From contig JAYTHP010000150.1 in the NCBI GenBank assembly GCA_043732485.1, positions 1 through 30,287 of the forward strand: DNA of 30,287 nucleotides, read 5' to 3'. The position numbers and the translations under genes are program-made. This DNA is from Oligoflexia bacterium. Lineage in GTDB: Bacteria; Bdellovibrionota; UBA1018. The notes under the pieces were generated by a model. That model saw nothing but the letters and a program-made list of their open reading frames with translations. It did not search any database and had not been told where the DNA came from. Shown one piece after another: positions 326 to 23,512 of the stretch (position 1 is its first letter; each line of letters starts with the position of its first letter).

Positions 326-3300
326 CTACGAAAACAGGGCTCTTAAGTACAAGAAGATTGCCAGCGGCTGTTGTGAGGCTTCGCGAGGCACCGGGGCGAG
401 TAAAACGACGCGCCCGTCGGCGAGCACTTGAAAAGGAGTCCTTTTGGCGCTGAGGTTGGCGTGCAGTGGCTGGTGCTGGTCCGGTTGCGGCAAAAGCAGC
501 AGTTTCACGGGCGTGTCTGGGCGGTGGTTGGGGAGTGACGGCGTGGGTGCGGGCGGGAGGCTTGGGGGCTGCGGCCTTGAGGTGAGCGCGTGCGTGGTCG
601 AGCCGCTTCGTTTGCGCAAAGTCGGTTGCGGGGGGAGCGAGATTGCCGGGCTTGGAGGCGCGCTTTCGCTGGCTTTAGGTTGCAAGTTGATCTTCAGTTT
701 CAGGATTTTCTGGTTGCGCAGCAGGATTTTAAGGCGCATGAGCATCAGGAGCTGTTTGGCTTCAAGCGGCAAGGCACCGAAGCGATCGGCGAGCTCTGCT
801 TCCAGCTCCAGGATCTCAGCGTCGTCCGTCATGACGGAAAGCCTACGGTAAAGCGCGAGTCGTTGGTGAACTGGCGGGATGTAGTCTTCGCCTAAGTAGG
901 CTGCAAAAGGAAAATGAATGTCAGGCTCGTTTTTGAGTGCCGCTGAGCGTGGGTGGGCGCCTGCGGATCCTGCGGGTAAGGACGAAGACGACTGGTCTAG
1001 CCCCTGCATGGCCTCTTCCAGCAGTTCCAGGTAGAGATCAAAGCCGACGGAGGCAATATTTCCTGATTGTTTTGATCCGATAATGTCGCCGCCACCGCGG
1101 GCTTCCAGGTCGTGGAGGGCGATTTGAAAGCCGCTGCCGAGTTCGACGTTTTTTTGTAAGGTGTTGAGGCGCAAGAGCGCGTCTTCGCTCACTTCGGTTT
1201 CTTCGGGGATCAGGAGGTAAGCCACGGCCCGCTCTGTGCTGCGGCCCACGCGTCCTCGGATCTGGTAGAGTTGTGATAAGCCTAAAAGGTCGGCGCGGTT
1301 GACGAGCAGGGTATTGGCGTTAGGAACGTCAAGGCCTGACTCAATAATCGTGGTGCATAACAGCACTTGGATTTCGTGGGCGTGAAACGCTAGCATTTGT
1401 TTTTCTAACAAGGCGCTGGGCATTTGTCCGTGGGCCGCGGCAAAGCGCACGTGAGGCATCAGGGCTTGCAGTTGCTCTAAGCAAGGCAGCAGGGTCTCAA
1501 TCCTAGGGTGCAGGAAGTAGACTTGGCCGCCACGTTGTATTTCAAATTCAATGGCTTTTTCGATCAGCGGGAGACTGAATTGCGCGAGATAGGTGCGAAT
1601 GGGTAGGCGGTTTTTGGGGGGGGTGCGCAGCAGACTCATCTCGCGTAACCCGCCTAGGGTCATGTGTAAGGTTCTGGGGATAGGAGTAGCCGACAGCGCC
1701 AAGGCGTGGGTGTTAGTCTTGAGGGTTTTGAGTTTCTCTTTGTGACGCACGCCAAAGCGATGCTCCTCGTCCACCACGATCAGCCCTAGGTTTTGAAACT
1801 GGATGTCGTTGGAGAGCAGGCGATGGGTGCCAATGATCAAGTCAATTTTGCCTTGCGCTAGCTCCTGGAGGATGGTTTTTTGTTGGGCTGCACTTTTAAA
1901 GCGGGAAACGGAGCGAATGAGGATGGGAAAAGCGCGAAAGCGCGCTTGAAATGCCACCTCGTGTTGTTGCGCCAGTAAGGTGGTGGGGGCAAGCAGCGCC
2001 ACTTGGTAGCCGCTTGCAATCACCTGAAAGGCCGCCCGCATGGCGATTTCCGTTTTCCCAAACCCCACGTCGCCGCAAATCAGGCGGTCCATGGGTTGAC
2101 CGGATTGGAGATCGCTTTCAATGGCCTCAAGCGCGCTCAGTTGGTCGGGGGTTTCGCTAAAGGGAAAGTGCGAGATGAAGTCAGAAAAATCCGCTCCCGG
2201 TGGCGCAACACTGAGCCCTTTTTGCTTTTTGCGCTGAGCATAGAGCTGGACCAGCTCGAAGGCGAGCGTCTCGGTATCTTCGCGCACTTGCTGCAAGGTT
2301 TTTTGAAACTTCGGGCTGCCGAGCAGATCAAGCGGCGGGTGAGCCTCCGGACCGAGGTATTTTTGGAGCCAGGCGAGTTTATCGACTGGCACATAGAGTC
2401 GATCGGCACCCGCGTATTCGAGCGTGACAAAATCGCTGGGAGCGCCCGATAAGGTGAGTCGACTTAACCCCTGATAGCGCCCTAAACCGTAATCGCGGTG
2501 AATCAGGGAGTCACCCACCTGAAACTCACCAAGCAGCGGCTGCTTCTTAGGAGAGGGCGAGGGGCGGGCTTTTTTGGGTCCGCTGCCGAGCCCCTTGATC
2601 CGCCCCTCGCTTAAGTTCAAGACCATCAGCTGTTCTTGCTCCCAGTAAAACCCCCCGCTCAAGCGGCCAGGCACGAGGTAAAGACCGGGGAGTTGGCTTG
2701 CAAACGAGCTTTGCACCGCGCAGCCTAAAGCGGCCAGTTCGGCGCGCACCTCCTCAGCTTGAGTGGCTGTTGCGACCACCCCGAGCATGCGGGTCCCCTG
2801 TTTTTGATGGCGCAAAAGCCAGCGACTGAATTGCTCAAGCGATTGGTGGCGGGCCGTGGGGTCCTCCCAGGTCTCTTGCGGGGTTTTCATGGGCAAAAAA
2901 ATCAAAGCTGGCTTGCTCCCTGCCGCGGGGGTCATTTCGGTGAGCTGCAAAAGATCAAAAAACAAATCAGCCGTGGCGCCGCCGCCCTGAGGTTCCGCTC
3001 CTTGCTTTGACCGTGCCATTAGCCTCTCGGGCGGTAAAAAGAGTGCTTCAGGCGGAGGCAGTAGACGGTAGGAGGTGGGGGTGTGAGGGGCGCTAGGGGA
3101 GGGTTTAAGGAGCGCATTATTTTCTGCAATCTGAGCGTCAAAAAACTGCTGCCAGTGCTTCAGGCAATGGGCCTGCTCGTTCCAGACCCAGGAGGTGGGG
3201 TGTGCCAGGTAATCGCACAAGGTGCTGGTGGCGTTCGTGAGGCCATCGTCCAGGCTATCGTTTGGCGTGGCAAAGCAAAAAGGAGCCCAAAGCAACGCGT

Positions 3301-4165
3301 CGGGGAGAAACTGACCGCGTTGGGCTGCTTGCAGGGTGCTTTCAAGCTTACGCAGCGGCCATTTGAGTTCCAAAGCGCGATTTTTCAGTTGGGTCAGCAG
3401 CGGACGTCGATGCTGGGCCTGGAAGAGCACCTCGTAGGCGGGAGGAACCCGCAATGTTTGGGGAGAGGTGGGGGTTGCGTCACCCGGGGCACGCGCCTGC
3501 CTGGTGGAAACTTGGGTGTCTGGATGAAAAAAGCTGATGCGGCTGATCTCACCGTCTTCTCCGAGTTCCAAGCGAGTCGGTAGGCTTGCGTCGCTAGGAA
3601 AAAGATCAATAATCTCGCCGCGCAGCGAAAAGGTGCCTGGATCTTCCACTAAGTCGCACTCCAGGTAGCCGCGCTCGGTGAGGCTGCTTGCCAGGGTGCC
3701 GTAAGCGGGTTGATCGCCTAAGCGAAAATGGAGCAGCGCCTCGCAAAACGCCTGCGGCGGCAAGATCACCTGGCTGATGGCAGGCAAAGTGCTGATCACC
3801 AACTCAAGGCGGCTGATGGGGGTGGTGGTGGTGGAGTTTTGGGTGAGTCGGGAGAGCGTTTTTAAGCGCTCAAAGCGCACCTGGGGGCTGGCTTTCACGC
3901 TGCTATAGAGCGAATGATCCCAGTGGGGGAAAAAAGCAAAGCGCTCCTCGTGGCGGGAGGAAGAGGACGAAGAGGAGCTGGGCTTGAGCGCCGCTGCCAG
4001 CGTGAGCAGGCACTCGAACAGCTCGCGGGCTTGCTCCTCATCAGGGCACAGCACCAGTGCAGGGAGCTGGGGGAAGGCATTTTGGGCGAGGGCTTGCAGC
4101 AAGATCCAGGCGCGAGCGGAAAGCGGAGCGCCTGCAAACCGAGTGGGCAGTGAGAGTGAATTCAT
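326..4165 (-). CDS. mfd: Transcription-repair coupling factor Mfd
   Basis: 1279 aa. UvrB-like N-terminal region (FSLRGEIIDLFP), CarD/TRCF RID domain (HRDYGLGRYQG...LYVPV), Walker A GDVGFGKT, DEEH, SATPIPRT, QIRGRVGR, TRG motif DLEARGGG, C-terminal RLALYRRL...ELADRFG. Confidence 0.97.
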   Translation of the reverse strand: MNSLSLPTRFAGAPLSARAWILLQALAQNAFPQLPALVLCPDEEQARELFECLLTLAAALKPSSSSSSSSRHEERFAFFPHWDHSLYSSVKASPQVRFERLKTLSRLTQNSTTTTPISRLELVISTLPAISQVILPPQAFCEALLHFRLGDQPAYGTLASSLTERGYLECDLVEDPGTFSLRGEIIDLFPSDASLPTRLELGEDGEISRISFFHPDTQVSTRQARAPGDATPTSPQTLRVPPAYEVLFQAQHRRPLLTQLKNRALELKWPLRKLESTLQAAQRGQFLPDALLWAPFCFATPNDSLDDGLTNATSTLCDYLAHPTSWVWNEQAHCLKHWQQFFDAQIAENNALLKPSPSAPHTPTSYRLLPPPEALFLPPERLMARSKQGAEPQGGGATADLFFDLLQLTEMTPAAGSKPALIFLPMKTPQETWEDPTARHQSLEQFSRWLLRHQKQGTRMLGVVATATQAEEVRAELAALGCAVQSSFASQLPGLYLVPGRLSGGFYWEQEQLMVLNLSEGRIKGLGSGPKKARPSPSPKKQPLLGEFQVGDSLIHRDYGLGRYQGLSRLTLSGAPSDFVTLEYAGADRLYVPVDKLAWLQKYLGPEAHPPLDLLGSPKFQKTLQQVREDTETLAFELVQLYAQRKKQKGLSVAPPGADFSDFISHFPFSETPDQLSALEAIESDLQSGQPMDRLICGDVGFGKTEIAMRAAFQVIASGYQVALLAPTTLLAQQHEVAFQARFRAFPILIRSVSRFKSAAQQKTILQELAQGKIDLIIGTHRLLSNDIQFQNLGLIVVDEEHRFGVRHKEKLKTLKTNTHALALSATPIPRTLHMTLGGLREMSLLRTPPKNRLPIRTYLAQFSLPLIEKAIEFEIQRGGQVYFLHPRIETLLPCLEQLQALMPHVRFAAAHGQMPSALLEKQMLAFHAHEIQVLLCTTIIESGLDVPNANTLLVNRADLLGLSQLYQIRGRVGRSTERAVAYLLIPEETEVSEDALLRLNTLQKNVELGSGFQIALHDLEARGGGDIIGSKQSGNIASVGFDLYLELLEEAMQGLDQSSSSLPAGSAGAHPRSAALKNEPDIHFPFAAYLGEDYIPPVHQRLALYRRLSVMTDDAEILELEAELADRFGALPLEAKQLLMLMRLKILLRNQKILKLKINLQPKASESAPPSPAISLPPQPTLRKRSGSTTHALTSRPQPPSLPPAPTPSLPNHRPDTPVKLLLLPQPDQHQPLHANLSAKRTPFQVLADGRVVLLAPVPREASQQPLAIFLYLRALFS

Positions 4166-4185
4166 TAGGGATCTACTTACCGGGC

Positions 4186-4214: not shown

Positions 4215-4246
4215 TTTCTTGAGGAGTAGAGGGGGATCTGCTGCTA

Positions 4247-4264
4247 TCGTCGTCGTCGTCGTCG
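4247..4264. repeat. (TCG)6 microsatellite in the putative nuo 5' leader
   Basis: tcgtcgtcgtcgtcgtcg read directly from the sequence. Confidence 0.9.
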
Positions 4265-4286
4265 GACCCTTTTTCTTGTTTTTCTA

Positions 4287-4742
4287 ATGCCTATGCTGAC
4301 TAATAAATGGGATTCCTACTCAATTGTCTTCCTCTCGGCGCTGCTCGCGTTGTTCATTCCCATTTTTTTAGCCTTCTTGTCCTGGTTGCTTTCGCTAACG
4401 CATCAAAAACGAGCGGTTAGTCCAAGTCCTAAGGCAGTGCACAAGGGGGTTCCCAAAAGCGCTCCCGTCAGTGCCGTGCCTTCGTTGATTCTGCTGGGTG
4501 GCCGCATTCACGTGCGTTTTTTTCTGGCGACCAATGCCGCACTGATTTTAATCACGCTCAGTCTTTTGCTGATCCCCTTTGTCACGGTGGTGGACGGAGG
4601 GGGAGCCGGGGGGGCGGCGGTGGATTGGACGAGCGGAGTGGGTGTAGGCGGGGTCCCCAATCGTTTGTTAGGTATTTTGAGTGTGGCTTTGTTTGCGGCG
4701 TTAGGTTTGCTCTATTCGATTCACAAAGAAGACATGGGTTAA
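4287..4742 (+). CDS. nuoA: Divergent NuoA-like membrane subunit (set 1)
   Basis: 151 aa, three hydrophobic segments, first gene before nuoB. RFFL...LIPF and LGLLYSIHKE echo NuoA KFYLVA...LYP and GYLY..K, but the ECG and FDVE motifs are absent. Confidence 0.7.
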   Translation: MPMLTNKWDSYSIVFLSALLALFIPIFLAFLSWLLSLTHQKRAVSPSPKAVHKGVPKSAPVSAVPSLILLGGRIHVRFFLATNAALILITLSLLLIPFVTVVDGGGAGGAAVDWTSGVGVGGVPNRLLGILSVALFAALGLLYSIHKEDMG

Positions 4743-4775
4743 TGACTTCGAACTTCGGTGCTTTGGGTTAAAATC

Positions 4776-5243
4776 ATGGGATCTTTTTACTTAGCCACTT
4801 TAGGTCAACTCGTCAAATGGGCGCGCTCCCGTTCCTTATGGTATGTCACCACTGGGTCAGGCTGTTGCGGCGACGAGGTGCTCAATGCCATGGGCTGTCG
4901 CTATGACCTGGAGCGCTTTGGTTGTTTGCCGCAAGTCGATCCGCGGCAAGCCGATTTGCTGATCGTGTGTGGGATGGTTTCCTACAAGGCGATGCCTTAT
5001 TTGCTCGATTTTTATGATAAAATGCTTTCTCCTAAGTATGTCTTAGCGGTAGGTTCTTGTGCCAGCTCAGGAGGGCCGTTTTCTCCGGATCTGAGTTACT
5101 CGGTGGTGCCGGGGGTGAACGCGGTGATTCCGGTGGATGTTTACGTGCCCGGATGTCCCCCTCGGCCGGAGGCGGTCATGAATGGTTTGATTGCCTTGCA
5201 GGAGAAAATTTGTGGACAACGATCCGCTACGTTTGAAAATTGA
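4776..5243 (+). CDS. nuoB: NuoB-like Fe-S (N2) subunit (set 1)
   Basis: GCC.DE, YDLERFG, PRQADLLIV, GSCASSGG, VDVYVPGCPPRPEA. ATG at 4776 preferred; the ORF is open from GTG 4758. Confidence 0.95.
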   Translation: MGSFYLATLGQLVKWARSRSLWYVTTGSGCCGDEVLNAMGCRYDLERFGCLPQVDPRQADLLIVCGMVSYKAMPYLLDFYDKMLSPKYVLAVGSCASSGGPFSPDLSYSVVPGVNAVIPVDVYVPGCPPRPEAVMNGLIALQEKICGQRSATFEN

Positions 5244-5733
5244 GCAGGCTTTTCCCGGGGTGCTCCTCGAGGGACGCCCTTTTGGCAAGTCCGATTGGCC
5301 TTCTCCTCTCTGGATTGCTTCTCACGCCTTAGCCGGGGTAGCGAAGTTGCTGAAGCAGGATCCCTCCGCGCCGTTGACTTTTTTAGAGAACTTGTCGGTA
5401 GTGGAGTTGGAGCAGGGGCTGATTGCCTCGTATTTTCTCAGTACGCGGGATTTTAAGAAAAAAGCGATGATTCGCTTCACCCTAGCGCTCGACCCGCTGG
5501 TGCCGCTGGTGATTCCTTCTGTCAAGCAGGTCTGGCCGATGGCCAAGCCGATGGAGCAAGAAATCAGTGAGCTGTTTGGCATTCAATTTGTGCTGCCCAA
5601 CGGGCAAAAAGTGGCTCATAGTGGCGGTCTCTTGGCGCCGGATTGGGCGGGCTATCCCCTGCGCAAGGCTTATAGCTTTCCCAGTCAATTTCAGGGGGTG
5701 ACTCATGCCAGAAATGGGGTGTCGCGTGGGTAA
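5212..5733 (+). CDS. nuoC: NuoC-like subunit (set 1)
   Basis: IPSVKQVWPMAKPMEQEISELFGIQF and DWAGYPLRK match NuoC (W..A.W.ERE..D.FG; GHPLRK). In-frame GTG at 5212 has GGAG upstream at 5201-5204. Confidence 0.88.
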   Translation: MDNDPLRLKIEQAFPGVLLEGRPFGKSDWPSPLWIASHALAGVAKLLKQDPSAPLTFLENLSVVELEQGLIASYFLSTRDFKKKAMIRFTLALDPLVPLVIPSVKQVWPMAKPMEQEISELFGIQFVLPNGQKVAHSGGLLAPDWAGYPLRKAYSFPSQFQGVTHARNGVSRG

Positions 5734-5739
5734 AAGCGC

Positions 5740-6888
5740 ATGAGGATGGACTGGATTGAGAACAAAAGTTTACTGACGCTCTGGGAGATGGGTCCTTATC
5801 ACAGTGCGTTGCCCGGTCCGATGCGGCTGCGTTTGTGGCTAGACGGCGAGTGGATTGCTGGTAGTGAGGTGGAGCACGGTTTTTTGCACCGAGGGTTAGA
5901 AAAGTGTCTAGAGTTGCATTCCTGGCGCGAGGCGTTGGCGTATGTCGATCATCTCGATCCTGAGGCGGCCATTTTTGGTGAGCTCGTTTTTTGCCTGGCA
6001 GTGGAAGAAATCCTGGGGGTGGAAGTGCCCGAGCGGGCGCAATTTATTCGCATGATTGTGGCTGAGCTCAGTCGCATTAGCTCGCATTTGCTCTTCATGG
6101 TGCGCATTGCCCAAGCGGTTGGCTCCGAAACGATCGTCCATTATCTGCTGCGCGACCGTGAAAAGATCCTTGATTTGTTTGAGCTCTTGACCGGGGCGCG
6201 TTTTTCCCATCACTTTTTGCGCTTTGGGGGGGTGGCCTATGACATGTCGGATGGTTTTATTGAGCGGGTGCTGGAGGTCTGTGATCTGATTCAAATTCGG
6301 ATGAAAGAGTACAACGATTTGTTCACCTATAACAATATTTTCGTGAAACGCAGCGCCAACATTGGGGTGTTAACGGCAGCGCAAGCTTTTGCAGCAGGCG
6401 TCACTGGTCCCAATGCGAGGGCCTGCGGGGTGGACGTCGATTTACGGCGGGAGTGTCCTTATTTGCGCTATCAGGATTTAGACTTTAATCCTGCAGTGGG
6501 GGCCGGAGAGGTGGGCAGTTTGGGGGACGTGCATGATCGCTTTTTGGTGCGGTTGCGGGAAATGGAACAAAGCATCCATTTGCTGAGGCAAGCGGTGCGG
6601 CAGGTGCCAGCCGGGGCGTTTTCCGAACCACACCGCGGGGACAGCGCCAGTTTGTTTGATTTTACCGTGGCGCCTGGTGAGGCTTATGCCCGGATTGAGA
6701 GCGCCCGCGGCTTGTTGGGCTGTCACGTGGTTTCCGACGGCAAGGAGCGTCCGTGCCGGGTGCAGTTTCGCGTGCCGACCCAGGGTCATTTATTAGTCTT
6801 ACCGGAACTACTCCAAGGCGCGAGGATTGAAGATTTATCGGTGATCCTTGCGAGTCTGGATCTGGGAATGGCGGAGGCGGACCGATGA
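5740..6888 (+). CDS. nuoD: NuoD-like subunit lacking quinone-site residues (set 1)
   Basis: MGPYH, LDGE, GFLHRGLEK, ELSRISSHL, RFGGV, C-terminal ASLDLGMAEADR. No NiFe CxxC motifs. Confidence 0.93.
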   Translation: MRMDWIENKSLLTLWEMGPYHSALPGPMRLRLWLDGEWIAGSEVEHGFLHRGLEKCLELHSWREALAYVDHLDPEAAIFGELVFCLAVEEILGVEVPERAQFIRMIVAELSRISSHLLFMVRIAQAVGSETIVHYLLRDREKILDLFELLTGARFSHHFLRFGGVAYDMSDGFIERVLEVCDLIQIRMKEYNDLFTYNNIFVKRSANIGVLTAAQAFAAGVTGPNARACGVDVDLRRECPYLRYQDLDFNPAVGAGEVGSLGDVHDRFLVRLREMEQSIHLLRQAVRQVPAGAFSEPHRGDSASLFDFTVAPGEAYARIESARGLLGCHVVSDGKERPCRVQFRVPTQGHLLVLPELLQGARIEDLSVILASLDLGMAEADR

Positions 6889-8054
6889 TCGGGTCAAGGT
6901 TCGGTTTGGCACTCCTGAGCACGGCAGCTGCGGCCACCCCGGGGTTAAGCGCCGACCCGGTGGCGGCCACCACGACAACAACGCCTGTGGCCAGTGCGTG
7001 GATCCATTACTGGATTCAGCCGCATGATGTGGGCCTCCCCTCGTGGTTTCTCTTCATCTTGACCTTAATCTTGATCTATCTGACGGTCTTGATTCCGGCT
7101 GCAGGGCTGATGATGTATCTTGATCGCAGGTTAGGCGCAGTTTTTCAAGCGCGCATCGGACCGCAGCGGGTCGGGCTGCAGGGGTTGTTGCAGCCCTTAG
7201 CCGATTTTTTAAAGTTATTACAAAAAGAGCTCTTGCAGCAAAAAAGCTGGCAAGAGAGCTTTTGGTTGGGGCTGTATACCATGGCCTTGTACTCGGTGCT
7301 TGCGGTCTTGCCGCTCGGCTCGCTGGCGCTGATGGTGGATACCGAGATGAGCGCTTTTTTGCCTTTCTGGGCGGCTTTGGTGTTTGCCTTAGGGACGATG
7401 CTCTTGGGCTTGAATCAGGGGTCGGTGCCAGGCTGGCTGGGCGGTATTCGGGTGGCAGCCCAGACTTTGGCGGGGGCTTTTCCGGCGCTCATCTCGCTGG
7501 TGTGTGCCGGGGTCAATGCCGGTAGTTTCCGCTGGAGTGTGCTTGCGGGCGCGCAGCGGGTGACGCCGTGGAGTTGGACGGCGCTCAGCAATCCGTTTCA
7601 ATTTAGTGCCTTTGTGGTGTTCATGATGAGTGGCTTGGTCCTGCTTGCGATTCCGCCGCTTGATGGCGGGTTGTCAGGCCCGGAGATGCAAGGTGGGATT
7701 TCTTCCTCGCTGTTTGGTCGGAATTTAAGTCTGTTTCACTTTGGCAGGTTTTTTGGCTTCTTCTTTTGGTCGATCATCACGGTGGTGCTGTTTTTAGGGG
7801 CGTGGGCCTTGCCTGAGTCCTTGCGTGATTTTCTGATGGACAGTGAGTCCTATCGCTCCTTGATTTTACTGGAGTTAGGCTGCGTGCTGGTTAAAAGTTT
7901 GTCGCTGATGGTCTTGGTGATTTGGGTTGCCAGGGTCAATCCCCGCAGTCGAGTCGACCAGATTACCGATTTTGCCTGGACGGTGCTGAGTCCTTTTGCG
8001 CTGATGAGCCTAGTGGGTGTGACGCTTTATGCCGGATGGAAGGCGCACGGATGA
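6885..8054 (+). CDS. nuoH: NuoH-like membrane subunit (set 1)
   Basis: QARIGPQRVG..GLLQPLADFLKLLQKE and PRSRVDQ. ATGA overlap with the nuoD stop. Confidence 0.92.
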   Translation: MIGSRFGLALLSTAAAATPGLSADPVAATTTTTPVASAWIHYWIQPHDVGLPSWFLFILTLILIYLTVLIPAAGLMMYLDRRLGAVFQARIGPQRVGLQGLLQPLADFLKLLQKELLQQKSWQESFWLGLYTMALYSVLAVLPLGSLALMVDTEMSAFLPFWAALVFALGTMLLGLNQGSVPGWLGGIRVAAQTLAGAFPALISLVCAGVNAGSFRWSVLAGAQRVTPWSWTALSNPFQFSAFVVFMMSGLVLLAIPPLDGGLSGPEMQGGISSSLFGRNLSLFHFGRFFGFFFWSIITVVLFLGAWALPESLRDFLMDSESYRSLILLELGCVLVKSLSLMVLVIWVARVNPRSRVDQITDFAWTVLSPFALMSLVGVTLYAGWKAHG

Positions 8055-8587
8055 GGTATTCCTTTATTTCCCAGTTTTTAATTTACCTCTGGGGGGTTTT
8101 TCAAGGGGCGCGTTCACTGGGGCAAGCCTGCTGGGTGGCGGTGCCTTATATTTTTCGCTGGGGGGAGCTCAAGCGAGAGGTGACAGATGGTTATCCCGAT
8201 CCGGTGTCTTCGCGCACGGCGGATGATTTGCCGCAACGCAGCCGGGGCTTTTTGTTCAATGAAATTGATCGCTGTACCGGATGCCGCGAGTGCGAGCGGG
8301 TGTGTCCGACCCACTGTATTAGCATTGAAGAAGAACCAGGGGCTGATGTCTCAAAAACCTGGATTTCGGTGTTTGACATTGATTTTGCGCGTTGCATGTT
8401 TTGTGGGCTTTGTGTTGAGATCTGTCAGCCGGCCTCGCTCAATCACACCAAGCAGTATGAGGGGGCAGCCTTTCAGTTACCCGATCTGGTGGCCAGTTTT
8501 GGTCGCGGGGTGGTAACCGAGGAGCAGCGGAAGAAGTGGGCCGTGATGCGGGAAGAGCAAGTCAATGATGAGGATGATTTCTTGTGA
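8051..8587 (+). CDS. nuoI: NuoI-like 2x[4Fe-4S] subunit (set 1)
   Basis: VTDGYP, RG, CTGCRECERVCP, FDIDFARCMFCGLCVEIC. Start at ATG 8051 (ATGA overlap with the nuoH stop) rather than 7922. Confidence 0.93.
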   Translation: MRYSFISQFLIYLWGVFQGARSLGQACWVAVPYIFRWGELKREVTDGYPDPVSSRTADDLPQRSRGFLFNEIDRCTGCRECERVCPTHCISIEEEPGADVSKTWISVFDIDFARCMFCGLCVEICQPASLNHTKQYEGAAFQLPDLVASFGRGVVTEEQRKKWAVMREEQVNDEDDFL

Positions 8588-9120
8588 TTAGCGCTTTGTT
8601 CGGTTTAATTGCCATTCTGGCAGCCTTTATTGCCACCTTTGAGCAGCAGATGCGGCGGGCGGTGCTGGCCTTATGGTTGTGTGGGATTGCCACGGGCTCC
8701 TTGTATTTGAGTCTCGGGGTAGAGTTTTTAGCCATTATCCAGTGGATTCTCTCCACCCTGGTGGCCATTTCTTTTATCCTGTTTGCCGTTATGTTTGGGG
8801 AATTTCAAACGGCAGGCGTGGAGGAGCGGGGGGAGCAAAAAAACCGGCTCCTTTTGCACCTGATTTTGGCGCTTGCGGTGGGTTTTGGCTTTTTGCTGAC
8901 CCTGGGGCTGGGGATGCAAGGGTTTTTGGAGCGTCCGTTGCCGCATAGCAGCGAATGGGGCGACTTGGCGGAGATTGGCAAAATGCTCTCTGCGCATTTG
9001 CTGGCGGTGGAGGTTTTAATCATTTTGCTCTTCTTGACGCTGGTGGGAGGCGGGGTGATTGCGCGTGGGCCTGTTGGGGGCGGTGGTCAAGCAGGAGAGA
9101 GGAAGGAGGACCTGCGGTGA
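8584..9120 (+). CDS. nuoJ: NuoJ-like membrane subunit (set 1)
   Basis: LYLSLGVEFLAIIQ...FAVMF and IGKML..HLLAVEV..ILL follow the NuoJ layout. GTGA overlap, located between nuoI and nuoK. Confidence 0.85.
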   Translation: MISALFGLIAILAAFIATFEQQMRRAVLALWLCGIATGSLYLSLGVEFLAIIQWILSTLVAISFILFAVMFGEFQTAGVEERGEQKNRLLLHLILALAVGFGFLLTLGLGMQGFLERPLPHSSEWGDLAEIGKMLSAHLLAVEVLIILLFLTLVGGGVIARGPVGGGGQAGERKEDLR

Positions 9121-9407
9121 TTTTGCTGGTTCCTATTCTTTTAGGGAGTCTCGGGCTGGTGTCGCTGTTTTCGCGCACCAGTATGATGGGAATTCTGATT
9201 GGCGTGCAGTTATTGATCCTTGGCACCTCGCAGATGTTCATCCTCACGGGGATGATTGCAGGCGAGCTTGCCAAAGGTGGGCTTTTAGGGTTTTGTATCG
9301 TCTTAGGTGGGGTGGCCCAGCTGGTGGTGGGTTACACCCTGAGTTTACGCTTGTTTCATTTGAAGCAATGCGTAAATCTCAGTGAAATACAGGAGCTGAA
9401 GAAATGA
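9117..9407 (+). CDS. nuoK: NuoK-like membrane subunit (set 1)
   Basis: 96 aa, three TM helices from GTG 9117 (GTGA overlap, AAGGAGGA SD). Aligns to NuoK with Gln at both conserved Glu positions. Confidence 0.82.
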   Translation: MILLVPILLGSLGLVSLFSRTSMMGILIGVQLLILGTSQMFILTGMIAGELAKGGLLGFCIVLGGVAQLVVGYTLSLRLFHLKQCVNLSEIQELKK

Positions 9408-11416
9408 CCCCTCAACTGATCGCCCTCTCCGACGACACCGGCGCGGTCCTACCTATGACCTCTTCTTGGTTGATGCTGGCTATTTTTTTTTTAGTGGCCT
9501 GTGGTCTCGTTGTGTTTGCCTCGGGGAAGAAGCTACCGCTGCGAGGTCTTTGGCTGTTGTGGTTGGCTTTAGTGCTGGTGGTGGCAGGCTCCGGGATGGA
9601 TTCGGGGCTATTTTTTGGTTTACCGAGCGTGACGAAAGCTTGGCTCGGGGAATGGATTTTGCCGCATGAGGAGTTAGGTGCGGTTAGTTTTGGGATCATT
9701 CATGACAAAATGAGCGAGGTGATGAGCGTACTCGTGGCGCTGATCACTGGGCTCTTGCTGCTGAAACACCCCAAATGGGCGCAAGCGGAGCACGCTTATA
9801 AAATTTACTCAGGCCTGGCGTTCTCAACAGCAGGGGTGATTTTAGCCTGGAATTCACTCACGCTGTGGATTGGCTTTGTGGGGGGAATTTTAACGCTGCT
9901 GGGCGGGGCGATTGCCCTGAGTTGCTCGGCTTGGCCCAGTGAGCAGAAGGATCTCACTTTACAGTTTATTTGGGAAAAAAGTGCGGGGTTTTTCTTTGCC
10001 TTTCTAGGAGCAGCGGTGCTGGCGGGTTCTAGGCCTGGGCTTTTTCTAACCCAAGCCTCGTCGTTGCCAATTTCTGAGGGCAACAGCAGCTTGCAGCCGC
10101 ATGCGACGGTCGCCTGGGTCGGCTCAAGCCTACTGGTTTTGGGTTTATTTTCGCAAGCGCAATCGTTCCCTTACTTAGGTTGGATGAACTATCAGTACTC
10201 CTTGTACTTGCCTGTCAGGGTCTTGCTCAGTCAGATTTTTCCCTTCTGGGCGGCTTTTGCCTTATTCTTGCGCTTCCAGCCGCAGCTGGTCACCTTGGGT
10301 TTTTTGCCGCCACTCAGTTGGTTTGCTCTTGGTTCAAGCCTGCTCACCTTAATTTCGGGGTTTTGCCAGCACTCCTGGCAACAGTCCTTTGGCGCTTTGC
10401 TCTCAGCCGGGTTTGCCCTCGTATTTGCGATCCTTGCTTCCGGTCAGCCGACCTCAGCTGGGCTGAGTTTGTTTTTGGGGATCAGCTTGGGTGGTTTGAC
10501 CTTTTTGCTGGCAGGCGAGGCGTTAGACGGCAGTCTTGAGGTGGCCGAAGCGGAGACGAAGTCGAGTCATCAGCGCACTAGCCTTTTTTTGAAGTTGGCT
10601 TGTGGCTTAGGCGTGGCTGCGATGACAGGGTTTTTCGGGTTCGTCTCAGCGCAAGGCGGCTTGGATTGGGTGGGGATGAAGGTGCATCAGCCGATTCAAA
10701 AAGTCTTCGTGCTCTTGGTTTTCTTTTTGTTCGTGGTGCTCGCGTGGCGTATTTTCTTTCAAATCAAACGGCTGCGCGCTCAGTCGCCTGCCCGTTTGTT
10801 GACTTTTGTCGCGCTGTTCATTTTACTGCTCCTCTCCAGCGGGCTGCTGTGGAGTGGCAGTCTCTCGGGAGGCGTTTTACTCAACCATCCTGATCAACTT
10901 TTTTCCCTCGGTCTGCACTCGCTCCTGGCGGGGCGCGCGGAGTGGAACGACTTTGATGATTACTTGTCGGCGTCGGGGCTCTACTGGGGGGTGATGTTGC
11001 TGGCTTTTTTAACCGCAGGGTGGACGTCCTCGGTGGCAGCTGAGAAGTGGGGGCGGGCCAACTCGTTTTTCCCCAAAGCCCGGCAATTCTTAAAGTCGGG
11101 CTACCAGATTCAGGAACTTTACGCCTGGGCGATGAAGGCTTTAATTGTGATGGGTCTCAGGTTAGAGTTTGTGGTTAGTACCAAGATCTGGGATCAGGGA
11201 ATGTCGCGTGGGTTATGGTTTTGTGTGAGTTCGGTGGCAAGCTCGGTGCAGCAGATCGATCAGTGGGTTTTTGAGTGTTTGGAGCTGCCGCTGGTCAAGG
11301 GGGTAGATCTTTCCTCCAAGCTGCTGCAGCTGATTCAAACGGGCGACGTGAGGTGGTATTTACTGTTCGGCCTCGGCGTGGGGTTTGGGTTACTGGCGCA
11401 TTTTTTAACGATTTGA
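9404..11416 (+). CDS. nuoL: Highly divergent NuoL-like antiporter-fold subunit (set 1)
   Basis: 670 aa multi-TM protein between nuoK and nuoM, with NuoL-type C-terminus LQLIQTGDVRWYLLF and W...FG..HD.MS N-terminal pattern. Core charged motifs are absent. Confidence 0.8.
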   Translation: MTPQLIALSDDTGAVLPMTSSWLMLAIFFLVACGLVVFASGKKLPLRGLWLLWLALVLVVAGSGMDSGLFFGLPSVTKAWLGEWILPHEELGAVSFGIIHDKMSEVMSVLVALITGLLLLKHPKWAQAEHAYKIYSGLAFSTAGVILAWNSLTLWIGFVGGILTLLGGAIALSCSAWPSEQKDLTLQFIWEKSAGFFFAFLGAAVLAGSRPGLFLTQASSLPISEGNSSLQPHATVAWVGSSLLVLGLFSQAQSFPYLGWMNYQYSLYLPVRVLLSQIFPFWAAFALFLRFQPQLVTLGFLPPLSWFALGSSLLTLISGFCQHSWQQSFGALLSAGFALVFAILASGQPTSAGLSLFLGISLGGLTFLLAGEALDGSLEVAEAETKSSHQRTSLFLKLACGLGVAAMTGFFGFVSAQGGLDWVGMKVHQPIQKVFVLLVFFLFVVLAWRIFFQIKRLRAQSPARLLTFVALFILLLLSSGLLWSGSLSGGVLLNHPDQLFSLGLHSLLAGRAEWNDFDDYLSASGLYWGVMLLAFLTAGWTSSVAAEKWGRANSFFPKARQFLKSGYQIQELYAWAMKALIVMGLRLEFVVSTKIWDQGMSRGLWFCVSSVASSVQQIDQWVFECLELPLVKGVDLSSKLLQLIQTGDVRWYLLFGLGVGFGLLAHFLTI

Positions 11417-11526: not shown

Positions 11527-13032
11527 ATGACACACCACTGGATCAGCTTTATGGTCTTCACTCCGCTTCTGGGAGCCTTATTGCAATCTTTCTTCTCCTC
11601 AGCCAAAAGTCGCTGGATTGCCCTGGCCGCAAGCCTGCTGTCGAGCATCTTTGGCTTGGTGGCGGTCATGACCTTGCTGCCGCAAACGGCCGACCTGCAA
11701 CACCGCGAGTCGGTGCCGTGGGTGAGTGCTTATGCCATGAGCTATACCATGGGGATTGACGGGCTAAACGCCTTACTCGTGATTCTCATTGCCCTTTTGA
11801 TCCCGGTGCTGATTGGGGTGGAGTGGCGACAAAAAACGGCCATCCACGGCATGCACGGGCTATTTTTGGTCCTACAAACGGCGCTTTGCGGGGCAGTGTG
11901 TGCGCAAGACCTCTTTTTACAGTTTTTCTTCTGGAGCCTGAGCGCCTTGCCATTTTATTTTTTAGTCGGCATCTGGGGCGGGGCGGGGCGTGAGCGCGCC
12001 GCCTTACGCGCCATGGTGGTGAGCTCGGTGGGGCATGCCTTGATCTTCTCGGCGCTGGTGTTGATCTATTACTCAGTCGAGCCGCATTCTTTCTCTATCG
12101 AGGATCTAGCGGGCGGGAAGCTTGAGGGGAAGGTCTTTTTCTTCTTGAACCAAAGACTCTCCGTCTCCCAGGTGGCCTTTAGTTTGGTCAGCTTTGGGTT
12201 AGCCTTACGGGCCCCGATTTGGCCTTTTCATGGTGATTTTGTCGAAGTGGCGGGCGAGGCGCCACTTTCGGTTTTTGTGGCGCTGATTGCCGGAGTGGTG
12301 CCAGTGGCAATCGGTATTTTCATGCGCATTTGCTACTTCTTGTTTCCCGAGATTCTCAGTGAGTCCGCGAAAATTATCGTACTGATCGGAGTGATTAACC
12401 TGATTATGGGGGGGTTGGCTGCGGTGGCGCAAAAAAACCTGAGGGGCCTCCTCGCGTTTGTCTGCTTAAGCGAGGTGGGGTTTATCTTGATCGGGATGGG
12501 CTCGCTGTCGTCAGCAGGTGTGGTGGGTGCGGTGTACCAAACGCTTGTGATGGGGTTGAGTCTGGCGGGGTTTGGCCTGGTGGCGGGCATTATTTTGGAT
12601 CGCACCGGCAGCACTGATTTTTTAGATGCCAACAGCGATCGTCGCTTAGTCGGAGGATTGTCGCTGAAATGCCCCTACTTGGCGATGGTGGCAGGCGTGG
12701 TGGTGTTATCGCTCTTAGGTTTTCCGGGGTTTGCGGGTTTTGTCGGCCATGCCTTGTTGATTATCGGTAGCTCGGCTGTGCATCCAGCCACTGTGGTAGT
12801 TGCAGGAGGGGCATTTTTGCTGGCTTCTTACTACCTGTTTAAAATGTACCGGTTTATCTTTTTTGGTCCCCCTTTGCCTGCCAACTTGCGGGCTAGTGAT
12901 CTTGACTTGCGGGAGCGGGCGTATTTGTTCCCGCTCATGGTGGGGCTATTGTTTTTTGGCTTCTATCCCAAACCTTTGATTGAGTTGATGCGACCGACCA
13001 TCTTAACGCTGCTTTCTACCCTGAAACACTAG
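11527..13032 (+). CDS. nuoM: NuoM-like antiporter-fold subunit (set 1)
   Basis: MGIDGLN, QDLFL.FFFW...PFYFLVGIWGG, PIWPFH, EAP, PGFAGFVG, DLDLRE, GFYPKPL. Confidence 0.92.
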   Translation: MTHHWISFMVFTPLLGALLQSFFSSAKSRWIALAASLLSSIFGLVAVMTLLPQTADLQHRESVPWVSAYAMSYTMGIDGLNALLVILIALLIPVLIGVEWRQKTAIHGMHGLFLVLQTALCGAVCAQDLFLQFFFWSLSALPFYFLVGIWGGAGRERAALRAMVVSSVGHALIFSALVLIYYSVEPHSFSIEDLAGGKLEGKVFFFLNQRLSVSQVAFSLVSFGLALRAPIWPFHGDFVEVAGEAPLSVFVALIAGVVPVAIGIFMRICYFLFPEILSESAKIIVLIGVINLIMGGLAAVAQKNLRGLLAFVCLSEVGFILIGMGSLSSAGVVGAVYQTLVMGLSLAGFGLVAGIILDRTGSTDFLDANSDRRLVGGLSLKCPYLAMVAGVVVLSLLGFPGFAGFVGHALLIIGSSAVHPATVVVAGGAFLLASYYLFKMYRFIFFGPPLPANLRASDLDLRERAYLFPLMVGLLFFGFYPKPLIELMRPTILTLLSTLKH

Positions 13033-13183
13033 GATCTCATGACACTTTTGCAAACTCGCTGGATCACCCTGAGCATGACTGATACCCCACTGGGCCTAGA
13101 GGTAGGGGGGGGTATACCTTGAGGCGGGGTGACGCGCGCCTGGAACAACCGACCCCTTACTTTTTTTTCGCTGGTTTTTGCTT

Positions 13184-14659
13184 ATGAATGACGTCAGCTA
13201 TCTACTCCCCGAATTGGTCTTAGCGTTAACGCTTGCGGCAGTACTGTTAGGCGAGATCACCTATGTCGGTGAGCGGCTCAGGCTGGTCACCGCGGCCTCG
13301 ATTGTCGGGTTGCTGGTGGCGTTCCTTGAGACGATTTTTTCCTATCAGTATCCTGCCGGCTTGATCTTTGGTGGGGCACTGTCGTTTGATGGTTTTTCAT
13401 TGTTTTTTAAGCTGATTTTTATCCTGCTGGCCTTTTTTTCTATCATCTACATGAGCCGGACCCAGGAAATTGAGGTCGCACGCCGGGCGGAGTTTTGTTC
13501 CTTGATCCTGGCGGCAACGCTTGCCATGTGCCTGGTGGCCTCGGCCTCGGATGCCTTATTGATTTTCCTGAGCGTGCTGTTTTTAAATGTGATTTGCACT
13601 TTTTTGCTCGCCTTTGGGCGGGATTCTTGTGACTCGGTGGAAGCGGCGATTAAGTATTTTTGTTTTAGTGCCGTAGCAAGCGCGCTGCTGCTTTATGCGC
13701 TAGCCATCTTGTTTGGCACCACACGCTCACTCAATCTTTATGAGATGCACAAGGTGCTGGCCGTTACTCCGCTGGCACATTCAGCCAATTTGGTAGTTTT
13801 TGGCCTTATTTTTCTCGCGCTAGCCTTCCAGGTCGGCTCTTTTCCGATGTCGCTAGTGCTACCTGATGTCATCGAAGGCGCACCCACTCCAGTCTCGGCG
13901 TTCGTCAGTGTCGGTTCAAGGGCAGCCGGATTTGCCTTGATGATTCGAACCTTAATTGCGTTGTTTGCGCAAGCTGGGCCTGCCGATTCCTACCAGTGGC
14001 AAGTCATGGGGGATTTTGATTGGACCGTGATGCTTGAGATTGTCTCAGGGATCACTATGCTCTCGGGCGCTTTGCTCTCGGTGCGGCAAAAACGCGCCAA
14101 ACGGCTGATTGGTTGCCTGATTCTCGTAGAAACCGGCTATTTGTGGATGGGGGTTCTGGTGCTTGATCAAGTGGGGATTGCTGCCCTGCTTTATAACCTG
14201 GTGCTTGGGCTTTTTGCGCTGGTAGGCAGCTTTTTTGTGGTTTCACGCTTTTACCAGGAGTTCAAATCCGATCATCTCTCAGAGATGCGCGGCATGCTGC
14301 AGCGGGCGGTGCCCGAGTCGGTGTGTCTCATCTTGTTTCTGTTGTGCTTAACCGGCAGCGCCCCGACCCCAGGGTTTATTGGTAAATTTACCCTGATTGG
14401 CATTGCCGTGCAGCATCAAAAACTGATTCTTGCAGCCGTGGCCGTGCTTGCAAGCTTTATTTCGACTTTGTCGGTGGCGCGACTGACTTTTTACCTGATT
14501 GGCGATTTTAAGCAGATGGCAGGGGTGCCTAAGCTGAAGGTGACGCGAGGCGACCAGGTGTTTTTAGCGGCTCTCATGGTCCCACTCATTCTGCTTGGAC
14601 TGTTTTCTGATTGGGTGTTTGCGCTAGCCAATCGTAGTTTAGGGTTTATTTTCTGGTAG
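13184..14659 (+). CDS. nuoN: NuoN-like antiporter-fold subunit (set 1)
   Basis: LLPEL, EAAIKYF, PDVIEGAPTPVSAF, PTPGFIGKF. ATG 13184; ORF open from TTG 13178. Confidence 0.92.
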   Translation: MNDVSYLLPELVLALTLAAVLLGEITYVGERLRLVTAASIVGLLVAFLETIFSYQYPAGLIFGGALSFDGFSLFFKLIFILLAFFSIIYMSRTQEIEVARRAEFCSLILAATLAMCLVASASDALLIFLSVLFLNVICTFLLAFGRDSCDSVEAAIKYFCFSAVASALLLYALAILFGTTRSLNLYEMHKVLAVTPLAHSANLVVFGLIFLALAFQVGSFPMSLVLPDVIEGAPTPVSAFVSVGSRAAGFALMIRTLIALFAQAGPADSYQWQVMGDFDWTVMLEIVSGITMLSGALLSVRQKRAKRLIGCLILVETGYLWMGVLVLDQVGIAALLYNLVLGLFALVGSFFVVSRFYQEFKSDHLSEMRGMLQRAVPESVCLILFLLCLTGSAPTPGFIGKFTLIGIAVQHQKLILAAVAVLASFISTLSVARLTFYLIGDFKQMAGVPKLKVTRGDQVFLAALMVPLILLGLFSDWVFALANRSLGFIFW

Positions 14660-14698: not shown

Positions 14699-15061
14699 AT
14701 GATGGCCTACCTCCCTGTTTTACTAATGATGATGATTGGAGCGATCGTAGGTGGGGTTGTGTTGGCATTGACCACCTTTTTAGGACGAGGCACCCCGCAC
14801 CCGCGTAAGAACATGCCTTTTGAGTGCGGCGTACCCTCGGTGGGCGACACCCATCATCCATTTTCGGTAAAGTTTTACCTGGTGGCCATTCTTTTTTTAC
14901 TGTTTGATGTCGGGGCGGTGTTTTTGTACCCGCTGGCGCTGGTTTTTCGGCGATACCTGGCGGTCAATCGCTTCATCCTACTAGAAATGGCGCTCTTTTT
15001 AACCGTATTTTGCTTAGGCTACCTCTACGTGCGCTCAAAAGAGGCTTTAGACTGGGAGTGA
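14699..15061 (+). CDS. nuoA: NADH:quinone oxidoreductase subunit A (set 2)
   Basis: KNMPFECG, FSVKFYLVAILFLLFDV, ALDWE. Confidence 0.96.
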   Translation: MMAYLPVLLMMMIGAIVGGVVLALTTFLGRGTPHPRKNMPFECGVPSVGDTHHPFSVKFYLVAILFLLFDVGAVFLYPLALVFRRYLAVNRFILLEMALFLTVFCLGYLYVRSKEALDWE

Positions 15062-15085
15062 AAAGATTGTAATGGGTCAAGACTA

Positions 15086-15586
15086 ATGGGAAAAGACGGC
15101 TTTTTTGAATTTTTTACCACGCGCTTGGAAACCCTGGTGAGTTGGGGACAAAAAAACTCGCTTTGGCCTCTGCCCTTTGGCACTAGTTGTTGTGGCATTG
15201 AGATGATGGCCACCCTTTGCTCGGATTACGACATGTCGCGGTTCGGGGCGGAGGTGGTGCGCTTTTCTCCTCGACAAAGTGACTTGTTGATTGTAGCAGG
15301 GGTGATTAGCTTGAAGATGGCGCCGGTGTTAAAGACGGTTTACGACCAGATGAGTGATCCCAAGTTTGTGATGTCGTTTGGGGCTTGTGCCTCCTCGGGT
15401 GGTATTTTCAAGGTTTATAGTGTTTTGCAAGGCATTGATACCATGATTCCCGTGGATATTTACGTCCCGGGTTGCCCACCCGCTCCGGAAGGGGTTTTGC
15501 ATGCGCTGTTGCAGTTGCAAGAGCAGGTGGCGCGCGGCGTGACGCACTCGCAGCGTAGAATAGCAGGAATTGCTTATGGATCTTAG
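15086..15586 (+). CDS. nuoB: NADH:quinone oxidoreductase subunit B (set 2)
   Basis: [37 protein letters not shown]. Confidence 0.97.
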
Positions 15587-16160
15587 AAGCTTAGGTGGGC
15601 ACGGCGTGGCTGAGCAGGCGGCAAAGTGCGCGGAACGCTGGGCGCAGCAAGTGGCACTCCTTAAGACGCGCTTTAGTGTAGACGAATTGCTGGAGGTGGA
15701 GTCTTTGCCTGTCCAGGCAACCGATGTGCTCAGCCTCCGGGTGGTCAAAGAGTGCTTACTTAAGCTGATGCAGGTACTCAAAACGGAAGCTTTGTTTGAG
15801 TACGCGGTGTTGTCTGATCTCACGGCTGTTGATCACCTGCCTGAGGTCCCCCGCTTTGAGGTGATTTATCACTTACTTTCCTTGAGTCAAAAGATGCGCA
15901 TGCGCGTCAGAGTGCGGGTAGGCGAGGGAGACAGTGTGCCGACTTTAAGTGGGATGTGGCCTGGGGCCAATTGGCTGGAGCGTGAGGTTTACGACATGTT
16001 TGGTGTGCCGTTTGCCGAGCATCCCGATTTACGGCGGATTTTGATGGATACGCGCTGGGTCGGGCACCCGCTGCGTAAGGATTATCCTCTCGCAGGCTTC
16101 CAGGTTTTCACAGAGCCGCTCCCTGGCGATCCGGGATTGCTGCAAGGTGAGCATGAGTAA
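15576..16160 (+). CDS. nuoC: NADH:quinone oxidoreductase subunit C (set 2)
   Basis: [38 protein letters not shown]. Confidence 0.96.
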
Positions 16161-17403: not shown

Positions 17404-17599
17404 GGGGTATTAGTCAGACTTTTGTTCAGGCGTAAGAGAAAAAAAGGGGTGCCTGAAGACGGCAGGGAATTGTGGGTGAAGGACGCAGCGAGGGCAAAGG
17501 TAAAGTGGTGAGGGTGTGTGTGAGTGTCGGTATGAGTGTGTTTCTGGAGAGCCCTCCTGGCAAGAATGAACAGGCAGTGAGTAGAGCAAAAAAAAGATC

Positions 17600-18079
17600 A
17601 TGAGCAAAAAAATTCTATCTTCCAGCTTTTATCAGCAGATTGCACTGCTTAAGCCCCGCTACCCTACGCTCAAGGCGTTGATGTTACCGTGTTTGCATGC
17701 CGCGCAAGCCGAGCAGGGAGGGTGGCTACAGCAAGCGGTTTTAGATGAGATTGCTGAGCTACTGAAGCTGCATCCAGCGGAAGTGCGCGAGGTGGCCTCC
17801 TTTTACTCGATGATTGCGCTTGCCCCGGTGGCGCGCTATCAGATTAAGATTTGCACCAACGTGGCTTGCGCCCTGCGGGGGGCTGATCAGTTGATGCAGC
17901 AGTGTCAAAGCCAACTGGGCATTGAGTGTGGAGAGATGACCGACGATCAGAAGTTCTCGCTTGCAGAAGAGGAGTGCTTAGGGTCGTGCGGCACGGCGCC
18001 TGTGATGATGCTGAACCAAGAACACTATGAAAAAGTCGACGCGGCAGCGCTGCAGGGATTTTTAGAAGGGTTAGAGTGA
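17600..18079 (+). CDS. nuoE: NADH:quinone oxidoreductase subunit E
   Basis: EVASFYSM, CTNVAC and ECLGSCGTAP ([2Fe-2S] N1a ligands). Confidence 0.96.
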   Translation: MSKKILSSSFYQQIALLKPRYPTLKALMLPCLHAAQAEQGGWLQQAVLDEIAELLKLHPAEVREVASFYSMIALAPVARYQIKICTNVACALRGADQLMQQCQSQLGIECGEMTDDQKFSLAEEECLGSCGTAPVMMLNQEHYEKVDAAALQGFLEGLE

Positions 18080-18083
18080 ACAC

Positions 18084-22074: not shown

Positions 22075-22080
22075 ACGCAT

Positions 22081-23483: not shown

Positions 23484-23512
23484 TGGCTGTGTGATGAGGA
23501 GGCGGTGATATC

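Follow-up and report, generated by a model that had tools for sequence, protein, structure and literature searches.

A conserved eleven-gene nuo operon of uncultured Bdellovibrionota predicted to encode a complex I derivative without canonical quinone ligands and with most coupling residues replaced

The set-1 nuo operon and its chromosomal site

The window analyzed here is the whole 30,287-nucleotide contig JAYTHP010000150.1 of an Oligoflexia bacterium (Bdellovibrionota; assembly GCA_043732485.1), and it carries two sets of nuo genes for complex I, one after the other on the same strand. The first of these, which we call set-1, consists of 11 genes in the standard nuo order without nuoEFG (A1 B1 C1 D1 H1 I1 J1 K1 L1 M1 N1, 4287-14659). 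Its NuoD-like subunit, NuoD1, had been singled out in an earlier note on this DNA as having lost the whole quinone-binding triad and the Arg adjacent to cluster N2. The genes of the locus are as follows.

326..4165, minus strand: mfd, transcription-repair coupling factor (Pfam DEAD, TRCF, CarD_TRCF_RID and UvrB_inter), the divergent neighbor that marks the chromosomal site
4287..4742, plus strand: A1, NuoA-like, 151 amino acids (no Pfam match; hhalign to the NuoA profile, 97.6%)
4758..5243, plus strand: NuoB1, carrier of cluster N2 (PF01058)
5191..5733, plus strand: NuoC1 (PF00329, E 9e-15; start uncertain, the open reading frame (ORF) overlapping B1)
5740..6888, plus strand: NuoD1 (PF00346; Pro25, His71, Pro74 and Ala126)
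6885..8054, plus strand: NuoH1 (PF00146; aligned to NdhA, set-2 NuoH and canonical mfd-adjacent NuoH)
8051..8587, plus strand: NuoI1 (Fer4 families; its ATG overlaps the H1 stop, ATGA)
8584..9120, plus strand: NuoJ1 (PF00499, E 1e-11)
9117..9407, plus strand: NuoK1 (GTG start overlapping the J1 stop, GTGA)
9404..11416, plus strand: L1, NuoL-fold protein, 670 amino acids (no Pfam match; assigned by fold and profile-profile comparison)
11527..13032, plus strand: NuoM1 (PF00361; phmmer to E. coli NuoM, 3rko_M)
13178..14659, plus strand: NuoN1 (aligned to NdhB, Paracoccus NuoN and set-2 NuoN)
14699..29049, plus strand: set-2, a canonical 14-gene nuoA-N operon 39 bp downstream of set-1 (NuoD with His, Arg, Tyr and Asp)

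Start and stop codons overlap at several of the set-1 junctions (ATGA/GTGA). The same layout, mfd next to set-1, was found in 12 of 14 related loci taken from named genome contigs; the set-1 reading frames are intact in 12 loci, and in 9 of the 12, namely all those on sufficiently long contigs, set-2 comes next. The remaining two hold canonical 11-subunit sets, one in a Gemmatimonadota metagenome-assembled genome (MAG) with 11 contiguous genes and one in a MAG labeled Chitinophaga, where nuoD and nuoH lie about 5 kb apart and nuoL is the last gene. No NuoD or NuoB gene beyond the two of each kind in set-1 and set-2 is present in the assembly of the window (2.58 Mb, 89% complete).

Replaced residues in NuoD1 and their conservation

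The ORF at 5740-6888 translates to 382 amino acids that belong to the NuoD-fold family, scoring 251.4 bits against PF00346 (Complex1_49kDa), for which the curated cut-off is 24. A PDB search matched 54 sequences at E <= 1e-5, including NdhH of T. elongatus (E 5e-71) and Nqo4 of T. thermophilus (E 1e-70). Residues were mapped by counting along the phmmer alignment of NuoD1 with Nqo4 (2fug_4). The results showed that Pro25 (CCC, 5812-5814) stands at His38, His71 (CAT, 5950-5952) at Arg84, Pro74 (CCT, 5959-5961) at Tyr87 and Ala126 (GCG, 6115-6117) at Asp139, so that all four replacements named in the earlier note were recovered, as was the constant offset of 13 residues that it had given; this offset runs from residue 15 to about residue 258 and becomes 8 after a five-residue insertion. 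NuoD1 therefore has neither of the quinone ligands His38 and Tyr87 (T. thermophilus numbering), nor the Asp139 partner, nor the N2-adjacent Arg84, and it carries Val at the Phe146 column. In the set-2 NuoD (16147-17403) the four columns read His, Arg, Tyr and Asp. The Cys pair that group 4 [NiFe]-hydrogenase large subunits carry at the Arg84 and Tyr87 columns is absent from NuoD1, again as previously claimed; a hydrogenase-like representative (P0185) has Cys at both columns 71 and 74. Since the sequence lacks the Tyr, His and Asp, the standard proton-donating quinone chemistry should be impossible for NuoD1, and on this point the earlier conclusion follows directly from the sequence.

Among 5.8 billion proteins searched, 120 homologs at 57-66% identity were listed; where an organism is named, it is a Bdellovibrionota, Oligoflexia or 'Bdellovibrio sp.' MAG, apart from one labeled Methylotenera. 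Conservation of Pro25, His71 and Pro74, proposed earlier as a check, was borne out for the two prolines (each 117/120) but only partly for position 71, where 101 of these homologs have His and 19 have Arg. Position 126 is Ala in 83 and Ser in 28, and Tyr20, His21 and Glu75 occur in 118, 117 and 116 of the 120, respectively. Deeper relatives came from an exhaustive HMMER search of cluster representatives, many of them at 40-50% identity. In these, column 25 is mostly Pro, column 71 is Arg, Lys or His, column 74 is mostly Pro and also Ser, Gly, Thr or Ala, and column 126 is small or apolar (Ala, Thr, Ser, Val and others). The claim that the triad and the N2-adjacent Arg are lost thus stood for His38, Tyr87 and Asp139, but the Arg84 to His change proved to be confined to a subclade and not family-wide, as most deeper relatives have Arg or Lys at column 71.

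We also compared 40 sampled members of the D1 clade with 56 canonical NuoD sequences column by column. The His and Tyr ligand columns are invariant in 56/56 canonical sequences, and the D1 clade has Pro there in 39/40 (column 25) and 38/40 (column 74). Only three columns in the whole protein discriminate the two groups (a residue shared by at least 85% of the D1 clade that differs from one shared by at least 80% of the canonical sequences), and two of the three are the quinone-ligand columns. With looser thresholds the extra discriminating columns fall mostly in the beta1-beta2 loop and near residues 71-84. A search with P0241 for related loci returned only canonical NuoD at 31-35% identity, mostly alphaproteobacterial with a few labeled Marinimicrobia.

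The earlier note had left one escape, namely that Tyr20 or His21 might take the place of the missing residues at the quinone headgroup. Among 17 deeper clade members, however, the Tyr20 column holds Phe in six, Tyr in three, Leu in three and other residues in five, and the His21 column is Asp in the close loci L002, L003, L005 and L006. The case for Tyr20 and His21 as putative substitute quinone ligands is thereby weakened, neither being a conserved replacement.

Coupling residues and iron-sulfur ligands across set-1

To the loss in NuoD1 are added replacements throughout the membrane subunits. Residue numbers were verified by counting for NuoM (E. coli) and NuoD (T. thermophilus). NuoH1 has Ala in place of the 'SYE' Glu and has lost most carboxylates of the loop between transmembrane helices (TM) 5 and 6, PFD..E.E.EL..EY. 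Both transmembrane Glu of NuoK1 are Gln in 11/11 orthologs. In the profile alignment of NuoA1 the YECG loop is absent, and the Asp and Glu columns of FDVE are occupied by Ile and Leu (LITL). The residues by which an E-channel is recognized, i.e., the NuoK Glu pair, the NuoH SYE motif and loop, and the NuoA FDxE motif, are thus not in place in set-1. A count against E. coli NuoM (3rko_M) gave E144S, K234R, K265P, H322E, H348M and E407H, so that NuoM1 retains the PF00361 fold match without E144, K234, K265 and E407, the residues taken as marks of proton translocation by NuoM. In NuoN1 the TM5 Glu is Leu, the TM7 Lys is Gln, the TM8 Lys is Arg and the TM11 His is Glu, the TM12 Lys alone being kept.

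The L1 protein had no match in Pfam or in PDB sequences in either single-sequence or profile searches. Its AlphaFold2 (AF2) model, of modest confidence (pLDDT 59.9, pTM 0.58), predicts a NuoL/ND5-like fold with a long C-terminal lateral helix and a terminal TM, and the top 50 Foldseek matches of the model comprise 49 NuoL/NdhF/ND5 chains and, at rank 49, an NdhB chain (11-15% identity). Alignment of L1 with the canonical NuoL profile by hhalign had a probability of 97.9%. We call L1 NuoL-like because the fold and the profile-profile comparison agree, the sequence searches having given nothing credible. In the profile alignment the Lys of KSAQ is Gln, and the Lys and Asp of GF.SKD are Ala and Gln.

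The iron-sulfur (Fe-S) ligands present the opposite picture. The four N2 Cys ligand motifs of NuoB1 (CC..E, C, CPP) are found in 13/13 set-1 orthologs as well as in the deep members L007, L023 and L024, and both CxxCxxCxxxC(P) motifs of NuoI1 (N6a/N6b) are kept in the window, L001, L007 and L023. All 12 Cys ligands of the N6a-N6b-N2 chain are therefore present, and because this wire is preserved, set-1 likely still conducts electrons.

Together, these alignments suggest that the loss of coupling residues spans the whole set-1 complex, most of the replacements being apparently neutral or non-titratable. The earlier note had framed the loss as a peculiarity of NuoD; it is real in NuoD, but it also takes in the coupling residues of NuoA, NuoH, NuoK, NuoL, NuoM and NuoN. 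This bears on the idea that set-1 goes on reducing quinone and pumping protons or other ions, with alternative ligands such as Tyr20, Glu75 or His71 and with its polar axis rewired through Arg/Glu/His in M1 and Gln/Arg/Glu/Lys in N1. There are indeed new conserved polar residues, such as Glu75 in NuoD1 and the TM11 Glu and TM12 His or Lys in M1 and N1, and the membrane arm is strongly constrained (see below). However, Tyr20 and His21 are not conserved in deeper and even in some close members, and the NuoL-like subunit has diverged past sequence recognition. Moreover, with the NuoK Glu pair changed to Gln in every ortholog and the NuoH and NuoA carboxylates gone, nothing known would be left to connect the quinone site with the antiporter-like subunits, and we regard such a rewired pump as doubtful.

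Selection on the set-1 genes

The ratio of nonsynonymous to synonymous substitution rates (dN/dS) was determined for the pair L002 and L003 (dS 0.34-0.51); six other pairs that were tried were saturated at synonymous sites. In set-1 the values were 0.014 for K1, 0.015 for I1 and 0.019 for M1, followed by 0.040 for H1, 0.041 for D1, 0.049 for N1 and 0.050 for B1, and then by 0.105 for L1, 0.13 for J1, 0.16 for A1 and 0.17 for C1. The set-2 genes gave 0.045 (A2), 0.050 (D2), 0.055 (B2) and 0.099 (C2). All 11 set-1 genes are under purifying selection, seven of them at the strength of canonical set-2, with A1, C1, J1 and L1 looser.

Nearly every residue essential to complex I function is lost from set-1, as would be expected of a decaying, functionless operon, but the range of dN/dS from 0.014 to 0.17 across the 11 genes, the intact frames in 12 loci and the conservation of the replacement residues among the listed homologs make that explanation scarcely credible. 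For NuoD1 in particular, the changes do not represent decay because Pro25 and Pro74 are conserved as given above and the dN/dS of D1 (0.041) compares with 0.050 for D2. As far as one pair can show, decay of set-1 is excluded.

A second alternative is that set-1 forms a redox-inert pseudo-complex, a structural or regulatory twin (scaffold or heterodimer partner) of the co-transcribed canonical complex I in which Fe-S clusters serve folding only. The invariable linkage of set-1 to set-2, 39 bp away, is in keeping with this, as are the very low values of M1 and K1, which are among the most constrained genes despite their lost catalytic residues, and the fact that no dedicated electron-input or acceptor gene was found in or adjoining the set-1 cluster. 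Yet the retention of all 12 cluster ligands through deep divergence and the dN/dS of NuoI1, second-lowest of set-1 after K1, are easier to explain by electron transfer, and we consider the pseudo-complex a possible but rather unlikely account.

Relatives of set-1 and a graded series of losses

The site that set-1 occupies beside mfd is taken by nuoA-H-J-K-L-M-N in 5/5 genomes of other families of Bdellovibrionota. The Glu, Lys and His residues are retained in these canonical mfd-adjacent NuoK, NuoM and NuoH (two or three of the five genomes compared), the NuoK Glu being retained in G009, G128 and G005. The nuoBCDI genes of these other families are located elsewhere, and their NuoD has His, Arg, Tyr and Asp in 8/8. 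A split of nuoAHJKLMN from nuoBCDI in Bdellovibrionota is described in the available part of PMC13147790. Two loci of other genomes have tandem arrangements: in L108 (G128:C1:25000-44999) the mfd-adjacent nuoAHJKLMN is followed by a tandem second A-H-J-K-L-M-N, and in L109 (G002:C5) there is a tandem second set A-C-E-F-H-J-K-L-M, the stretch showing no B, D, G or I.

Locus L024 (G193) has a NuoD with Ile-Arg-Tyr-Val at the four columns, i.e., with Arg84 and Tyr87 retained. Its NuoK Glu residues are lost; in its NuoM, E144T and K234R stand beside unchanged K265, H322, H348 and E407, and its NuoH loop is partly kept. None of these retained residues is left in L023, in L007 or in the window. The sequences thus appear to form a graded series of loss, from canonical through L024 and then L023 and L007 to the window, with L024 as a putative intermediate and deeper relative. 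A further set-1-type NuoD match, at 47% identity and with an in-frame TAG, lies at G189:C22:45709-46806.

A NuoD tree was built with FastTree (LG+gamma) from 134 NuoD-like sequences over 365 columns and rooted on a hydrogenase-like sequence. The input consisted of unfused search representatives of 340-470 amino acids and the NuoD ORFs of the loci of at least 330 amino acids, with fused NuoCD and fragments excluded. The set-1 lineage is one clade of 60 tips (support 0.84) with no canonical member and no His at column 25, and it does not branch from the clade of the Bdellovibrionota BCDI type. This position could be a long-branch artifact or a real, older divergence.

If the divergence is real, set-1 might descend from an ancient lineage in which the quinone ligands had never arisen, without secondary loss, comparable to the NuoD of Sulfolobus, Nautiliales and Desulfurobacteriales. 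The placement of the clade outside all canonical sequences and apart from the BCDI-type clade agrees with this, and such NuoD variants are reported in the part of PMC4758237 available. Against it, canonical nuoAHJKLMN occupies the same mfd-adjacent site in the other families, the loss is graded, Tyr87, Arg84 and several pump residues being still present in an intermediate, and the tree position can be explained by long-branch attraction. We consider an ancient origin of this kind improbable.

Five larger genomes of the same family as the window have NuoD genes beyond those of set-1 and set-2. In G275, G205 and G299, the three whose extra clusters were retrieved, a third NuoD lies in a canonical 11-gene cluster elsewhere, alongside set-1 and set-2, and G260 and G287 match them in their pattern of Pfam hits. 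Two fourth NuoD copies that were retrieved are in hydrogenase-like clusters. Loci L112-L116 (G275, G205, G299 and G287) show up to four NuoD-like genes, distributed over set-1, set-2, the canonical 11-gene cluster and small hydrogenase/Ehr-like clusters; one of the latter has the order I-D-B-H-L and a NuoD-like protein with 'RVCGLC'. The view that set-1 is a simple replacement of the phylum's canonical 11-subunit enzyme is weakened, as G275, G205 and G299 hold both. Because this third, canonical cluster coexists with it, set-1 cannot be viewed simply as standing in for a canonical enzyme that has been lost.

Sequence features around the set-1 genes

A scan of 4100-15200 found 4 promoter-like sites (shuffled sequences, 5.1 +/- 2.4) and 30 terminator-like sites (shuffled sequences, 23.9 +/- 5.2), neither being above chance. 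The 110-bp gap between L1 and M1, which besides the M1-N1 gap is the sole sizeable intergenic gap inside set-1, contains at 11434-11458 a hairpin with an 11-bp stem followed by a T-run. NuoH1 begins with an Ala/Thr-rich N-terminal extension of about 45 residues (6885-7030) that is not in the aligned orthologs, and its real start may be downstream. Directly after the 14-gene nuo operon, a fragment of an IS4/IS5-type transposase (DUF4096 + DDE_Tnp_1) occupies 29743-30285 and runs off the end of the window. The genome of the window has a further Proton_antipo_M (PF00361) gene outside both nuo sets (G000:C250:15635-16330).

Comparison with known complexes

Among known systems, the 11-subunit complex I or NDH-1 (T. 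elongatus, 6hum chains H, A and B) has, like set-1, the same eleven subunits (order ABCDHIJKLMN), no NuoEFG and three sets of [4Fe-4S] ligands, and its NdhH, NdhA and NdhB are the best PDB matches of NuoD1, NuoH1 and NuoN1. The ligand columns of NdhH, unlike those of NuoD1, carry His, Arg and Tyr, and unlike their set-1 counterparts NdhA and NdhB keep the membrane Glu and Lys. The Bdellovibrionota mfd-adjacent nuoAHJKLMN together with nuoBCDI shares with set-1 the same mfd site and the same subunit set, and NuoN1 is closer to the mfd-adjacent canonical NuoN than to set-2 NuoN; these split clusters have canonical residues and two loci, whereas set-1 is one contiguous operon. Set-1 and the canonical mfd-adjacent cluster are likely orthologous.

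MBS/Mbx and Ehr are complex-I-like systems with a NuoD homolog that has neither NiFe ligands nor the quinone Tyr and His. The chain 6u8y_L of the MBS/Mbx sulfane-sulfur reductase matched NuoD1 in the PDB search at E 4e-63. Unlike these systems, set-1 has Nuo gene order and composition and no Mrp-type extra subunits, and to our knowledge a loss of pump residues like that in set-1 has not been reported for MBS.

According to the part of Degli Esposti (2015; PMC4758237) available, NuoD without His38, Tyr87 and Asp139 occurs in Sulfolobus, Nautiliales and Desulfurobacteriales, and such variants are read there as pre-quinone ancestral states. On NuoD, the only subunit compared, they resemble NuoD1 in having neither the quinone triad nor the NiFe cysteines; in contrast to the ancestral reading, the loss in set-1 looks secondary and covers the whole coupling pathway. 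The same part of that work gives Fpo as having Tyr87 without His38 and Asp139, which is the three-residue pattern of the L024-type intermediate. We found no description of a set-1-type complex in the full-text literature (supplements and subscription-only work, e.g., the original Ehr paper, aside), and the available parts of PMC4758237, PMC4453560, PMC12361115 and PMC13147790 contain none.

Discussion

Set-1 appears to encode all 11 subunits of a complex I derivative that one order-level group of uncultured Bdellovibrionota has conserved. On the evidence of the alignments, its canonical quinone ligands are gone and its coupling residues mostly replaced, while Fe-S ligands, folds and gene order are kept. 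The reading that we favor, at a probability of roughly 55%, is that set-1 is a selectively maintained derivative that carries electrons, uncoupled, to a non-standard acceptor and is not a coupled quinone reductase. Under this reading the complex would no longer act as an energy-coupled quinone reductase, and electron flow from a cytoplasmic donor to N2 would most likely be retained, the candidate donors being ferredoxin, flavodoxin or the NuoEFG module of the neighboring set-2 operon. From N2 the electrons might then pass, without proton pumping, to an acceptor in a remodeled pocket, which with Pro, Pro, Ala and Val for His, Tyr, Asp and Phe would have smaller side chains and be more apolar.

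Several points weigh against this reading. The alignments of the membrane subunits are at 25-30% identity, so that single columns could be misplaced, although two or three independent alignments agreed in motif context. Not every replacement in NuoM1 and NuoN1 is neutral, and since conserved Arg, Glu and His occur in them at TM7, TM11 and TM12, a rewired ion path is possible. The dN/dS values come from a single unsaturated pair, conservation of the Fe-S ligands can serve folding alone, and the sequencing runs that contain the sequence are metagenomic DNA with no RNA run among them, and are thus uninformative on expression. Finally, Tyr87 mutants of canonical complex I remain active with short-chain quinones, as the available part of PMC4758237 reports, and electron transfer to some quinone is therefore possible.

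More tentatively, set-1 may represent an undescribed 'proton-dead' complex I whose Fe-S wire and membrane arm have been repurposed, either as an obligate silent partner that assembles with the set-2 complex or as a membrane-anchored non-quinone reductase. A catalytically silent partner might find a parallel in the non-catalytic paralogs of other bioenergetic machines.

The coupling mechanism of complex I is debated and is usually probed by mutating Tyr87, His38, the NuoH loop carboxylates, the NuoK Glu pair and the antiporter Lys and Glu. Set-1 offers a natural 'all-sites knockout' of those residues that would be useful for structural and biophysical comparison, and the graded series of relatives suggests an order in which coupling sites can be lost. 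It is a puzzle that a small-genome bacterium retains about 10 kb of membrane-protein genes apparently unable to conserve energy, and a new acceptor or a structural role, if true, would widen the known functional range of the complex I superfamily.

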